A stretch of 60,610 bases of DNA from an uncultured Erysipelotrichaceae bacterium (GCA_902801685.1 CADCIZ010000001.1:1-60610), one strand, 5' to 3'. Counted from the first letter of the stretch, positions 9,181-12,693 are shown. Notes: generated by a model not told the origin, from the letters alone. Numbers and translations are program-made.

Positions 9181-9401
9181 ACCCACTCTCCTATCTATAA
9201 ACATGATACCATAAATATACTTATTTGAAAAGAAAAAATTACAGTAATAATTATACTAGTCTTCACCTTAGTTACCAAAGAATATAATTACCTGTAATTA
9301 CTTTTTCTTGTATTATTTATACCATACAAGAGGAATAATACTTGTTTCCTTAATCTTTTCATCATTAACCTTAGTATAACAATACATAGTTTTTAAGGAA
9401 T

Positions 9402-9488
9402 CTGGGCGAACGACGTTATTATAGTTATTCCAGACCTTATTAGCATTCACATTACCATTATTGTTAATATTCCAGACACGACGAGCCT
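9402..9488 (-). repeat. DGR template repeat (TR), non-coding, downstream of the RT
   Basis: Gap-free 87-bp alignment to 11709-11795. On the minus strand it reads ..GCTCGTCGTGTCTGGAATATTAACAATAATGGTAATGTGAATGCTAATAAGGTCTGGAATAACTATAATAACGTCGTTCGCCCAG, with 11 AAY codons in the VR frame. Confidence 0.9.
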
Positions 9489-9509
9489 TGCAGTAATATC
9501 CCTAACAGT

Positions 9510-9538
9510 ATTATACTAATTATTTGTTAATTATTCAA
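9510..9538 (-). promoter_or_regulatory. Candidate SigA-type promoter reading into the TR
   Basis: Minus strand TTGAAT (9533-9538), 17 nt, TATAAT (9510-9515). It overlaps the RT stop codon about 20 nt upstream of the TR. Confidence 0.4.
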
Positions 9539-10739
9539 TTAGTAGTTGAATTTTTCCATACTCATCTATTATTACATAATCACCGATATCATATTTATCT
9601 TTAAAATATCTATTTAAAGTATTATCAACAAGATTATATGTATCACCATATCTTAAATGTCCTATGTAACTATACTTAACTTGATTAACTATATCTAAAC
9701 TAACTTTATTATCAAAATACAACTTATATAAATTCTTCATTTTTCTTTTAAATCTTCTTTTTGTTTGATTTTTAACTCTAACACACAACTTACCATTTCT
9801 TCTTACAAATCTAAATCCTAGAAAATCAAATCCATCATCTATACTATATATTCTTGTCTTGCTATTTAATTCTAATTCATAAGTGTTCATGAGTTTCTCT
9901 ATTTCTTTTAAACAATACTTTAGATACTCCTTACTATTAGAAACTAATATACCATCATCCATATATCTAATATAAATACCAGGTTTTAATACTCTCTTAA
10001 TATAATTATCAATTTTATATAAGAATATTATTGCAAAAACTTGTGAACTTACACAACCTAGTGATAAAGAGTAACCATGCTTACATAGTGGTATATCATT
10101 GATCTCTCTAATTAATTTATCTTTATTTTTATTATTACTTAATTTAATCTTCTTTATCTCTTTTTTCTTTATCTCATTAATTTTCTCATTAATATAACTC
10201 TCATTAGTGGAATCAATAATACTATCTATTATATTAATTGCATCATTATCTTTGATATTATCTCTTATTATTCTTTTTAATATATCATGACTAATATTAA
10301 AGAAGTATTTCTTTATATCAAACTTTAAGATATATAAATCTTCATTAATATGTAAATTTAAATAACTCTTTAACTTATTAATGCCATAATGAGTACCTTT
10401 ACCTACTCTAGTTGCAATATTATTATCTATTAATAATCTATCAAACACATATTCTAATATATAAACACTTACTAAATGATTAATAATCTTATCAGCAATA
10501 GACTGCGACATAATAAGTCTAACCTTTGGTTCTTTTATTAAGAATATATTATACTTACCAGGCTTATATAACTTATTATCTAATATATACTTTATTCTAG
10601 CTATATTAGATGCATAGTATTCATCAAACCTCTCTATAGCTACTTTATTCTTAGTATTTAATCTAACCTTCTTATCATATATATACTTAATATTCTTAAT
10701 ATCAGTTATTCTATGATATAGATTGCCTCTTCTTCTCAT
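9531..10739 (-). CDS. DGR-type reverse transcriptase
   Basis: The N-terminus RRGNLYHRI is typical of DGR RTs. RT motifs present: KVRLIMSQSIADKII (1), IATRVGKGTHYGI (2a), YILKFDIKKYFFNISH (3), SLGCVSSQVFAIIFL (4, with the DGR-specific SQ), YIRYMDDGILV (5) and FDFLGFRF (7). Confidence 0.9.
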   Translation of the reverse strand: MRRRGNLYHRITDIKNIKYIYDKKVRLNTKNKVAIERFDEYYASNIARIKYILDNKLYKPGKYNIFLIKEPKVRLIMSQSIADKIINHLVSVYILEYVFDRLLIDNNIATRVGKGTHYGINKLKSYLNLHINEDLYILKFDIKKYFFNISHDILKRIIRDNIKDNDAINIIDSIIDSTNESYINEKINEIKKKEIKKIKLSNNKNKDKLIREINDIPLCKHGYSLSLGCVSSQVFAIIFLYKIDNYIKRVLKPGIYIRYMDDGILVSNSKEYLKYCLKEIEKLMNTYELELNSKTRIYSIDDGFDFLGFRFVRRNGKLCVRVKNQTKRRFKRKMKNLYKLYFDNKVSLDIVNQVKYSYIGHLRYGDTYNLVDNTLNRYFKDKYDIGDYVIIDEYGKIQLLIE

Positions 10740-11058
10740 TTATAATCCAACTATTCACCATTTTATTAATTTCAAGCAGGTAATTACCTATATTAATAAA
10801 CTTCTTATAACTAATTAATTTATTATCAACACTTAATTTAGTATAAAACTCAATCATCTTTATTTCTACTACAATCTTCTTCATAATATTAATATCTTTA
10901 CTAATACTTGCTTCATAAGATAATCTAAGTAACGAATAAAATGAATTAATAATATTATTCTTTAAAAGTATATATTCATGAGGATAATTATCGATAAACT
11001 TAAACACATATTCTATAGTCTTTTTAATCTTAATAGATATTATAAACTTATCTTGCAT
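10711..11058 (-). CDS. avd: Avd-like accessory variability determinant (small basic helical protein)
   Basis: 115 aa, predicted all-helical, with a basic C-terminus. It sits directly upstream of the RT, overlaps it by 29 nt, and is itself overlapped by 19 nt by the upstream ORF. Size and position are classic for Avd. Similarity was judged by eye only. Confidence 0.6.
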   Translation of the reverse strand: MQDKFIISIKIKKTIEYVFKFIDNYPHEYILLKNNIINSFYSLLRLSYEASISKDINIMKKIVVEIKMIEFYTKLSVDNKLISYKKFINIGNYLLEINKMVNSWIINEKKRQSIS

Positions 11059-11459
11059 ATTATCCCTTCAATATTAGTTAATATATTATTAATATTAGAA
11101 TTGAATATATTATCATTTAAATACCTAGTAATATCATCAATTCTATTAATAACAGAAATATAATTATAATCAGTTATATAATCATTATAATGATTATGAC
11201 TAAACCTATTTACATTAATACCTTCTTTATCATAGATAATATAATTAATCTCATACTTAGTTAAGATAGATGTTACTTTAACTAAACTAGCTACAGGAAA
11301 ATCACATCTAATATACTTATTCCATCTTTTAATCTTATAACCCAATAACTTATTAATAATAATACAATCATCGCATAAACATTCATAAAATCCACCTGAT
11401 TTAATCAACATAATTGACTTAGGATATCTTTCTTTTAAATCTTTATATACTTCAAACAT
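11040..11459 (-). CDS. MutS domain I (mismatch-binding domain)-like stand-alone protein, DGR accessory ORF
   Basis: MFEVYKDLKERYPKSIMLIKSGGFYECLCDDCIIINKLLGYKIK...CDFPVASLVKVTSILTKYEINYIIYDK aligns by eye with the E. coli MutS N-terminus ([71 protein letters not shown]). Start at ATG 11459 behind GGAAGGGAG. Confidence 0.6.
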   Translation of the reverse strand: MFEVYKDLKERYPKSIMLIKSGGFYECLCDDCIIINKLLGYKIKRWNKYIRCDFPVASLVKVTSILTKYEINYIIYDKEGINVNRFSHNHYNDYITDYNYISVINRIDDITRYLNDNIFNSNINNILTNIEGIICKISL

Positions 11460-11662
11460 AATAAACTCCCTTCCAAACAAAAATAGAAACATAGTTCCTA
11501 TTTTTAAACTAGTAATACTAGTAATCGCTTTAATTAGATATAATTATCATAGCCTTTTCAAGGCATGATAATTTTGGCTTTTCCCCTGCTTTACTTCGTA
11601 AACCATGGTCTTTCCTTTAGTTCTTACATCTTTTATAGTTTTCTCTAATTTCTAATTTTATC

Positions 11663-11685
11663 CTCTAATTTAGTTCTAATTAGAG
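11663..11685 (-). promoter_or_regulatory. 8-bp-stem hairpin overlapping the target stop codon, 23 nt 3' of the VR GC-rich end
   Basis: CTCTAATT (11663-11670) and AATTAGAG (11678-11685) with a 7-nt loop. TCTAATT recurs 3 times in 11644-11670. Confidence 0.5.
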
Positions 11686-12693
11686 TGCAGACTTAGAGAA
11701 TGTTACAACTGGGCGAACGACGCCATTCCAGTAATTCCAAACCTCATGAGCAAACACATAACCATCATAGTTAATATCCCAGACACGACGAGCCTCATCT
11801 TGATATGGACTCATTGTCCAATAATAGTAATTACTATTGTAAACCCAACTTGGTGTATTTTCGTTATTAAGATTTATATATGTTGCATCTTTAGCAGCAG
11901 GTTCATATCCTAAAGAAGTTGTTAATTCTTCATATGTTAAAAGTCTTGCTTTATATCCAAATTTGTCGGTTGCTAAATCAGACTGAGTTAATTTATCATT
12001 AGCCCATGCATCTACGGCAAATTTAATATCAGAGTCATCATAATCACTTGTACATCCAGTCTCAGCACCTGATTTACACGTATCACTACTATAGTAAGTC
12101 ATTCCACCATAACCATTAGAATTATACGCAACACCTTGTGATGAAGTTGTATATCTATTAATATGTCCTGCACCATAAGTTGTTACTTCATCTACTGTAA
12201 GTGGAGTTTCTTTAAGTGCAGTTACTGATGCCTCTTTTGCACCACTTGCACTTACTACATAGAATTTCATTCCTTTGTATGTAATTTCATCTCCTACGTT
12301 ATATACTTTATACGATGGAGACTTATCAGTTCCATATACATATCCTTCTACAGTTCTATTTTTTACTGTACACCCAGCAAGATATACTGATGAATCTGGA
12401 TTAATTTGTGTAGTTTCACAAGATACTGTATCTCCTGAATATTCAATTGTTAATTGAGATACTTCTGTTGGAAATTTACCTGTATCAAGTAAATACCCAG
12501 CAATTGCAAGTTCAATACTTCTTCCATACGCATCAACACTTCTCTTATCAGCTGCAATTCTAGCCTTTCTAATAATGTTCATAACTAAAGGTGTTACTAT
12601 TAAAGCGATTATTGCCATAATTACGAGTACAGCAATTAACTCGATTAGAGTAAATCCTCTAACTTTTCTTTCTTTTACCTTTTCAATTTTCAT
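11680..12693 (-). CDS. DGR target protein: type IV pilin/pseudopilin-like N-terminus fused to a lectin-like C-terminal variable domain
   Basis: Class III signal peptide: KVRG|FTLIELIAVLVIMAIIALIV, with Gly at -1, Phe at +1 and Glu at +5. The C-terminus YYYWTMSPYQDEARRVWDINYDGYVFAHEVWNYWNGVVRPVV carries the VR. Confidence 0.85.
   Translation of the reverse strand: MKIEKVKERKVRGFTLIELIAVLVIMAIIALIVTPLVMNIIRKARIAADKRSVDAYGRSIELAIAGYLLDTGKFPTEVSQLTIEYSGDTVSCETTQINPDSSVYLAGCTVKNRTVEGYVYGTDKSPSYKVYNVGDEITYKGMKFYVVSASGAKEASVTALKETPLTVDEVTTYGAGHINRYTTSSQGVAYNSNGYGGMTYYSSDTCKSGAETGCTSDYDDSDIKFAVDAWANDKLTQSDLATDKFGYKARLLTYEELTTSLGYEPAAKDATYINLNNENTPSWVYNSNYYYWTMSPYQDEARRVWDINYDGYVFAHEVWNYWNGVVRPVVTFSKSAL
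11709..11795 (-). repeat. DGR variable repeat (VR) at the 3' end of the target gene
   Basis: 73 of 87 positions are identical to the TR. 12 of the 14 mismatches fall at TR adenines. The shared 3' end GTCGTTCGCCCAG is GC-rich and IMH-like. Confidence 0.9.

Follow-up and report, generated by a model that had tools for sequence, protein, structure and literature searches.

A stretch of 60,610 nt from an uncultured Erysipelotrichaceae bacterium (GCA_902801685.1, CADCIZ010000001.1:1-60610; hereafter the window, with positions counted from its first letter) carries on its minus strand a cassette with the parts of a diversity-generating retroelement (DGR). DGRs are the only known natural form of targeted protein hypermutation in prokaryotes. 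A preliminary description of the same DNA had listed five components in order, and all of them were found as placed: a target gene of 337 amino acids (aa; 11680-12693) with a variable repeat (VR) in its C-terminal part, msl, a 139-aa accessory gene resembling MutS domain I (11040-11459), a 115-aa avd gene (10711-11058), an intact gene for a 402-aa reverse transcriptase (RT; 9531-10739), and a non-coding template repeat (TR). The order is target, msl, avd, RT, and TR with an adjoining structured RNA. The overlaps of 19 nt between msl and avd and of 29 nt between avd and RT were reproduced exactly, and the domains N_methyl, MutS_I, bAvd/DivGenRetAVD and RVT_1 were confirmed by Pfam and NCBIfam.

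The template and variable repeats

TR (9488 to 9402) and VR (11795 to 11709) form an 87-nt pair that is 84% identical and is the sole long direct repeat of the region. A scan with TR, with adenines masked and unmasked, detected no further copy in the entire window. The alignment had been proposed to be adenine-biased and, when computed, it is: of 14 mismatches between the repeats, 12 are at adenines of TR, which has 28 of them, and all 12 fall at codon position 1 or 2 of the target. The two other mismatches are a C to T at 11740 and a T to G at 11728. Because the TRs of two related cassettes (L009 and L090) keep T, the VR base of the window, at the site corresponding to 11740, this mismatch is a change in the window TR after the last copying event. 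Hypothetical translation of TR gives ARRVWNINNNGNVNANKVWNNYNNVVRP with 11 AAY codons, which together with one ATT, one AAG and one TAT codon make 14 diversifiable codons with a coding capacity of ~1.8e15 protein variants. TR and VR have a GC-rich 14-nt 3' end in common, CGTCGTTCGCCCAG. An adenine-masked TR search revealed no second VR in the window and no trans target among all fetched paralog loci, such that each TR matches only the adjacent gene.

The behavior of VR among relatives points in the same direction. Database relatives of the target number 1,908, and 13 of them, 89-100% identical, differ from it almost solely in VR. When a TR-adenine codon is defined by a TR adenine at codon position 1 or 2, all 14 such codons vary among the 13 relatives, compared to 52 of the 323 other codons (Fisher p = 3.6e-11), and the mean entropy is 2.07 bits in the former and 0.12 bits in the latter. 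At the DNA level, eleven strain loci related to the window, drawn from metagenomes of rumen and gut, have TRs 0-1 nt from the window TR and VRs that differ from TR at 12-17 adenine sites. Rumen metagenomes that contributed relatives include ERZ28614607, ERZ28613972 and ERZ1041809. The most diverged ortholog (L008/L012) is found in RUG12438, a rumen metagenome-assembled genome (MAG) labeled Erysipelotrichaceae. The TR of L012 has 8 non-adenine changes relative to the window TR, and its VR is the same as its own TR at every non-adenine position, with 18 adenines differing. This tracking is what one-way copying from TR to VR predicts, and the paralogous cassettes L014 and L025 show the same pattern. 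The TRs are nearly invariant, and the variation is confined to TR-adenine codons, as anticipated in the preliminary description. As far as sequences can tell, the variation in VR is population-level evidence of mutagenic retrohoming.

The target protein

The 337-aa target gene with its C-terminal VR was confirmed. The protein is built from a class III signal peptide, a pilin module (approximately residues 1-125), a small beta mini-domain, and a C-type-lectin-like head of the DUF6273 type. The signal peptide, KVRG/FTLIE with the slash marking the predicted processing site, has Gly at -1, a hydrophobic residue at +1 and Glu at +5, and the N-terminus matches N_methyl (3.3e-7) and IV_pilin_GFxxxE (1.7e-6), both over their cut-offs. 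In NCBIfam, the GspG and ComGC pseudopilin families match as well. An AlphaFold2 model of the target with a predicted local distance difference test (pLDDT) score of 86 has an alpha-1 helix at residues 16-71 followed by strands at 90-110; the module comprises a small beta-sheet and two conserved cysteines. A sequence profile search of the PDB returned pilin N-termini only (MshA, PilE, GspG), with no relative of the head domain.

Because the full-length model gave just weak and unspecific matches to PDB structures, the C-terminal domain was modeled alone (pLDDT 89). In Foldseek, this model matches phage DUF6273 proteins, including annotated receptor-binding proteins (E = 1.7e-6 to 1e-4), and the structure of the Thomasclavelia ramosa IgA peptidase (IgAse; 9qa6, E = 1.1e-3). 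The N-terminal domain of this enzyme is a DUF6273 C-type-lectin-like domain (PMC12237041, PMC12402451), to which the match presumably corresponds. Structure matches to EgtB and Ly49 were present and not significant. The Pfam DUF6273 match of the target itself is weak (1.4e-3), and the domain is on record for relatives. VR, codons 300-329 of 337, sits within this lectin-like head. The mini-domain between pilin module and head (residues 126-160, ~12214-12318) gave Foldseek matches of 27-29 residues to chitin-binding domains of the CBM5/12 type, which were not significant (E ~0.5).

As judged from the models, the target qualifies as a modular pilin as defined by Raynaud et al. (PMC8179133), with a lectin head diversified by the DGR. 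In gut phages, DUF6273 domains are well established as DGR targets (PMC11792537, PMC10743442). For type IV pilins or pseudopilins as DGR targets, no dedicated description was found in the searchable literature; the sole related items are a table that lists a "GspG-type pilin" (PMC11661182) and a brief mention of putative pilin structures (PMC6642488). It is the type IV pilin module, as carrier of a variable lectin head in a Gram-positive lineage, that has received little documentation.

Reverse transcriptase and accessory proteins

The RT has the motifs RRGNLYHRI, LGCVSSQ and YIRYMDDGILV, the second of which was taken as a DGR signature in the preliminary description, and matches RVT_1 in Pfam (2.4e-17). 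The closest solved structure in a PDB sequence search is that of the Bordetella phage RT, bRT (8ub7, E = 2.8e-22), in an alignment that pairs LGCVSSQ with IGSLTSQ and YMDD with YMDD; group II intron RTs rank behind it, none better than 6.6e-10. Over its full length, the protein matches the phage DGR RT family phrog_1423 (1.9e-80). Avd matches bAvd over the Pfam cut-off (2.9e-12), NCBIfam DivGenRetAVD under the curated cut-off (2.6e-13), and phrog_3206, "Avd protein of DGR" (8.5e-12), in keeping with its provisional assignment.

Msl likewise bears out its likeness to MutS domain I, with a Pfam MutS_I match over the cut-off (9.9e-7). The GxFYE motif of this domain is kept, GGFYEC aligning with GDFYEC of Taq MutS, and by sequence the PDB match to Taq MutS is just E = 0.06. 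A 150-aa version starting at ATG 11492, in an open reading frame, was considered and disfavored; since relatives measure 137-141 aa, the start was placed at ATG 11459. A word-based search gave just 9 Msl clusters, and it was an exhaustive profile search that revealed the family, 837 clusters of mostly ~140-aa proteins. Residues G22, F24, D31 and F54 are invariant in the family, the Phe of the MutS Phe-X-Glu motif among them, and the Glu is present here (FYE). A few family members of ~500-570 aa match in their C-terminal part only; in P0260 (568 aa) and P0277 (507 aa) the profile covers residues ~380-480, and these may be fusions of RT and Msl like those of Wu et al. (2018).

Non-coding elements

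A region of ~170 nt directly 3' of TR (9232-9401, minus strand) is conserved even between cassettes with RTs that are 65% identical, and nhmmer finds this structured RNA after TR in every fetched cassette that retains a TR. The RNA has three helical regions, the last being a stem with a U-run. Its 43 pairs are 98.7% paired in nine sequences, and 13 pairs have compensatory changes, compared to 5.3+-1.5 in shuffled controls and 0-2 in controls with slid partners. By its position, the RNA is the likely counterpart of the Sp region in the DGR RNA of Bordetella (Handa et al.). A terminator scan gave no intrinsic terminator in 9000-13100, yet the final helix and U-run of the RNA resemble one.

Directly 5' of TR, a consensus scan identified a promoter-like element, TTGAAT-17-TATAAT (9510-9538, minus strand), that matches the consensus at 10 of 12 positions and overlaps the RT stop codon. 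Its "-10" box, TAATACTGT, is kept in the diverged cassettes L014 and L025, and the element may act as a TR promoter. A hairpin, CTCTAATT-N7-AATTAGAG (11663-11685, minus strand), begins 23 nt past VR and overlaps the stop codon of the target gene; folding of the DNA at 11600-11725 gives z = -2.46. L009, L014 and L025 have a hairpin of other sequence at the same relative place. This is a candidate for a hairpin or cruciform in DGR target recognition, or alternatively for a terminator.

Gene family, cassette decay and chromosomal context

The target belongs to a multicopy family. In a scan of a genome collection, four related MAGs (RUG12438, SRR12081294_bin.11, a human-gut "Bacilli" MAG and SRR12081298_bin.74) were each found to hold between 5 and 18 full-length paralogs. 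The pilin-lectin paralogs at loci L012-L065 (CACZAH, CAMKGA, CAKPFG, CAMJTE) are scattered among housekeeping genes, and the same N-terminal module also occurs in pilin-like proteins that are shorter (121-206 aa) or longer (479-500 aa). Only three of the genome loci have RT, Avd and Msl (L012, L014, L025). The window itself has a paralog of 300 aa (18354-19256, minus strand), 5.7 kb upstream and past two ABC transporter genes, that is 48% identical to the target, with the same pilin N-terminus and a lectin-like C-terminus, and is without ~40 residues of the middle region. It was considered as a second DGR target and rejected, as it has no VR matching TR.

Related cassettes are found in several states of disrepair. 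In three strains (L001-L003), 15 nt that include two stop codons are inserted just ahead of YMDD (9991-11211 in L001), L007 has lost the C-terminus of the RT and the TR (10600-11000), and the RT of L009 is split (2165-3293). A 384-aa gene is inserted between target and msl in L011 (9430-10584). At L042 (8169-8291), a partial copy of the TR-flanking RNA lies ~200 nt past a pilin-lectin paralog, with no TR, RT, avd or msl nearby, and looks like the relic of a lost cassette. L090 (JAEEGL015130975.1, 2-3206) combines a window-type RT (97%), TR and RNA with target (42%), msl (55%) and avd (76%) of the L014 type. Its TR does not match the adjacent VR, with 33 of 59 non-adenine positions differing, and the mosaic is either a real recombinant or a chimera of metagenome assembly.

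Genes for type IV filament assembly were seen in one fetched locus. In L052, four genes in a row (3332-7381) encode a platform protein of the T2SSF type (459 aa), a prepilin peptidase of family A24 (252 aa), an unassigned 478-aa protein and a 121-aa pilin with the N-terminus of the target. The clade has type IV filament machinery on the strength of this locus, in which it is documented only by the T2SSF protein and the A24 peptidase; a secretion ATPase was not seen adjoining these genes. The filament ATPase motif GxTGSGK[ST]T occurred neither in the window nor in ~65 loci, and a looser Walker A pattern was matched by one 690-aa open reading frame in L053, the start of which resembles a peptidase-domain ABC transporter.

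The cassette is flanked by chromosomal housekeeping genes, those for PcrA/UvrD helicase, two ABC exporters, acetate kinase (AckA), LysRS, Dus, MiaA, QueA, GAPDH, ClpP, GreA, SmpB and RNase R. The order that recurs in other strains is an AAA-ATPase/PDDEXK_9 gene, target, msl, avd, RT, TR, genes for proteins of 256 aa and 582 aa, and PcrA. No match to the cassette was obtained by blastn against 50,697 phage records, relatives of the RT were absent from 2.9 million viral contigs and limited to eleven in metagenome contigs, and no integrase or phage structural gene adjoins the cassette.

A number of other genes in the window deserve mention, all on the minus strand. The AAA-ATPase_like and PDDEXK_9 gene directly upstream of the target (12923-14569) is syntenic in all related strains and has no match among PADLOC or PHROG families. 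Just downstream of the TR RNA, two genes (6566-8314, 582 aa; 8410-9204, 264 aa) encode Asn-rich, low-complexity, membrane-anchored proteins without family match that are syntenic in relatives. A coupling protein of a type IV secretion system (T4SS; VirD4/TraG type) and a CHAP/SpoIID-domain protein are encoded at 55973-60182, and weak matches to T4SS_pilin, under the Pfam cut-off, were noted at 51210-52376 and 40378-41205. These genes, unrelated to the DGR, may be remnants of a conjugative element. Dockerin type I domains at 3479-4414 (1.3e-8) and 30129-33206 (4.6e-6) hint at surface assemblies of the cellulosome type in this rumen lineage, the genome of which has 27% GC.

Discussion

The locus is, very probably, a real, intact and complete DGR in the chromosome of an uncultured rumen or gut bacterium, with target, msl, avd, RT and TR/RNA in this order. 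Each refuting condition named in the preliminary description was checked, and all outcomes favor a DGR. Two explanations that would remove it from this class, or from the host, fare poorly. The chance that the RT is a group II intron, retron, abortive infection (Abi) or defense RT (DRT) enzyme beside a coincidental repeat appears negligible. The top NCBIfam family is group_II_RT_mat (101 bits, cut-off 300), the retron model scores 35 (cut-off 235), no DGR RT family is listed there for this protein, and PADLOC DRT models match weakly. The last are far below phrog_1423, however, and bRT and the phage DGR RT family outscore the other RT classes by far, which answers a doubt raised in the preliminary description; no group II intron or other Rfam RNA was found in the window at the gathering threshold, and the repeat has the adenine signature and population behavior of a TR/VR pair. 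The window was also free of tRNAs in a tRNA scan. By sequence similarity, the RT belongs with bRT and the phage DGR RTs and not with intron, retron or defense enzymes. It is also very improbable that the element belongs to a prophage, a plasmid or an integrative and conjugative element (ICE) and serves that element. Most known DUF6273 DGR targets are phage proteins (PMC11792537), and the T4SS coupling protein and CHAP-domain gene are ~43 kb away. Against this stand the housekeeping flanks with the same synteny in many strains, and the absence of matches in the phage collection, of RT relatives in the viral contigs, and of adjoining integrase or phage structural genes. A host-serving chromosomal DGR without phage link, as originally proposed, is supported.

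A more ambitious interpretation is that the DGR builds a hypervariable adhesin of a type IV pilus: uncultured low-GC Bacilli of rumen and gut would diversify the lectin heads of modular pilins by DGRs, in a multicopy family whose cassettes have been repeatedly gained, recombined and lost. We consider the chances of this interpretation to be about even. Several observations count against the reading favored here for the locus as a whole, a host DGR that diversifies a modular type IV pilin. The window lacks genes for a type IV filament ATPase, a platform protein or a prepilin peptidase, and the Foldseek match of the target to solved DGR variable proteins such as TvpA (2y3c) is not significant (E ~1.4). 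The Msl family varies at the Glu of the MutS Phe-X-Glu motif, and the RNA covariation derives from just 3-4 independent lineages. Several related strains have broken RTs, a sign that the cassette is often lost, and the VR of the closest relative, P0002 (98% identical), encodes the very protein sequence found in the window, from which it follows that turnover is not fast enough for every sampled strain to differ. The P0002 sequence can also be taken to mean that the DGR is a fossil in this strain, intact in sequence and silent, with VR differences that are relics spread by descent. The almost identical VRs of P0011 and P0013, from strains with broken RTs, and the one TR position that has drifted since the last copying event fit this view as well. 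Still, we find it unlikely: four open reading frames, TR and structured RNA are all intact in the window, TR is strongly conserved, and nearly all other relatives have a different VR, even those that are 94-96% identical overall. The DGR is genuine and intact, of published architecture, and probably active.

The DGR may also be real and its target not be a pilus subunit, the signal peptide serving just as a membrane anchor or the protein being part of a short pseudopilus of the Com or T2SS type, which would put the lectin head at the cell surface and not on a long fiber. This is a possibility to be taken seriously, though we consider it less likely than not. It agrees with the lack of filament machinery in the window and beside ~50 fetched paralog loci, L052 excepted, with the GspG and ComGC matches, and with the 5-18 gene copies in each of four genomes, which is unusual for pilus subunits. 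The pilin module is, however, ~60% identical to a canonical short pilin of 121-126 aa that, in a related genome, is encoded beside T2SSF and a prepilin peptidase, and Streptococcus sanguinis assembles modular pilins with adhesin or lectin modules into type IV pili (PMC8179133, PMC9934059).

For the DGR and its product, the following sequence of events is proposed. TR and the ~170-nt structured RNA would be transcribed, possibly from the promoter-like element at 9538-9510. By homology to Bordetella bRT-Avd, a complex of RT and Avd would copy TR into cDNA with misincorporation opposite template adenines. The cDNA would replace VR at the 3' end of the target gene, guided by the shared GC-rich end CGTCGTTCGCCCAG and perhaps by the hairpin. 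In Bacteroides, deletion of mutS raises retrohoming 5-10-fold (bioRxiv 10.1101/2024.11.15.621889). Msl keeps the Phe that contacts mismatches in MutS domain I, and it is a reasonable, if speculative, idea that it shields the mismatch-dense cDNA:VR heteroduplex from mismatch repair by MutS/MutL. A prepilin peptidase would then cut at KVRG/FTLIE, and the pilin module would join a type IV filament, with the tip as its most likely place, where the hypervariable DUF6273 head would bind changing ligands in the rumen or gut, such as glycans, other cells or host surfaces. The outcome is seen in the strains compared, in which the 14 TR-adenine codons are rewritten and the scaffold and TR are kept.

The mechanism is an ordinary one, and the little-described part is what gets diversified. 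The locus had been put forward as an unusual system on account of both its target and its accessory genes, and this holds in part. The combination of Msl and Avd was described as Architecture D (Wu et al., 2018; PMC5758913) and is also present in Bacteroides pilin DGRs (bioRxiv 10.1101/2024.11.15.621889), and the lectin-like head is of a known DGR target fold, DUF6273. The type IV pilin as carrier remains poorly documented. With a standard mechanism, the value of the finding is incremental. DGR targets nevertheless indicate what a host must keep re-recognizing, and the locus points to type IV pilins as the means by which uncultured Bacilli of gut and rumen arrived at the solution that Bacteroides reached with type V pilus tips. 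If true, it would be the type IV equivalent, in Gram-positive bacteria, of these DGR-diversified tips, and a natural case of a retroelement tuning the specificity with which a filament, retractile or assembled, binds. The series of strains with intact, RT-broken and relic cassettes constitutes a compact natural data set on the maintenance and loss of DGRs, and bears also on the role of Msl and on the RNA elements that flank a TR placed after the RT.

Comparison to known systems helps to delimit what is shared. The DGR of Bordetella phage BPP-1 (mtd-avd-TR-brt) has the same RT family, Avd and adenine-specific transfer from TR to VR, a VR at the 3' end of a receptor-binding protein with a C-type-lectin fold, a shared GC-rich 3' end, and, as a likely counterpart, a structured RNA 3' of TR. 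Unlike the phage-borne BPP-1 element, that of the window is chromosomal, has TR after RT and has Msl in addition, and its target is a fusion of a pilin and a lectin of the DUF6273 type rather than a tail fiber with a lectin of the Mtd type. Architecture D DGRs, known from Legionella and from Bacteroides (Bfr, Bth, Bun), similarly encode a small MutS-domain-I-like gene with avd (PMC5758913). The Bacteroides DGRs, which are cellular or ICE-borne, also diversify the lectin head of a pilus subunit (bioRxiv 10.1101/2024.11.15.621889). These type V pilins are made as lipoprotein precursors and assemble by strand exchange, whereas the target described here has a class III signal peptide and an alpha-1 helix, and its host is an uncultured low-GC member of the Bacilli. 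The DUF6273 targets of gut phages, in Faecalibacterium prophages (PMC11792537) and tentaclins (PMC10743442), have VR in the same domain family, and in the Faecalibacterium prophages also at the C-terminus of the domain (PMC11792537). In the phages the domain is part of receptor-binding or decoration proteins, whereas in the window it is grafted onto a host pilin module. Finally, PilB and PilC of the monoderm Streptococcus sanguinis follow the same plan of a small pilin module that carries an adhesin or lectin module (PMC8179133, PMC9934059). Their modules are vWA and concanavalin-like and are not hypermutated, whereas that of the window is a DGR-diversified DUF6273 domain, encoded by one of many paralogous genes.

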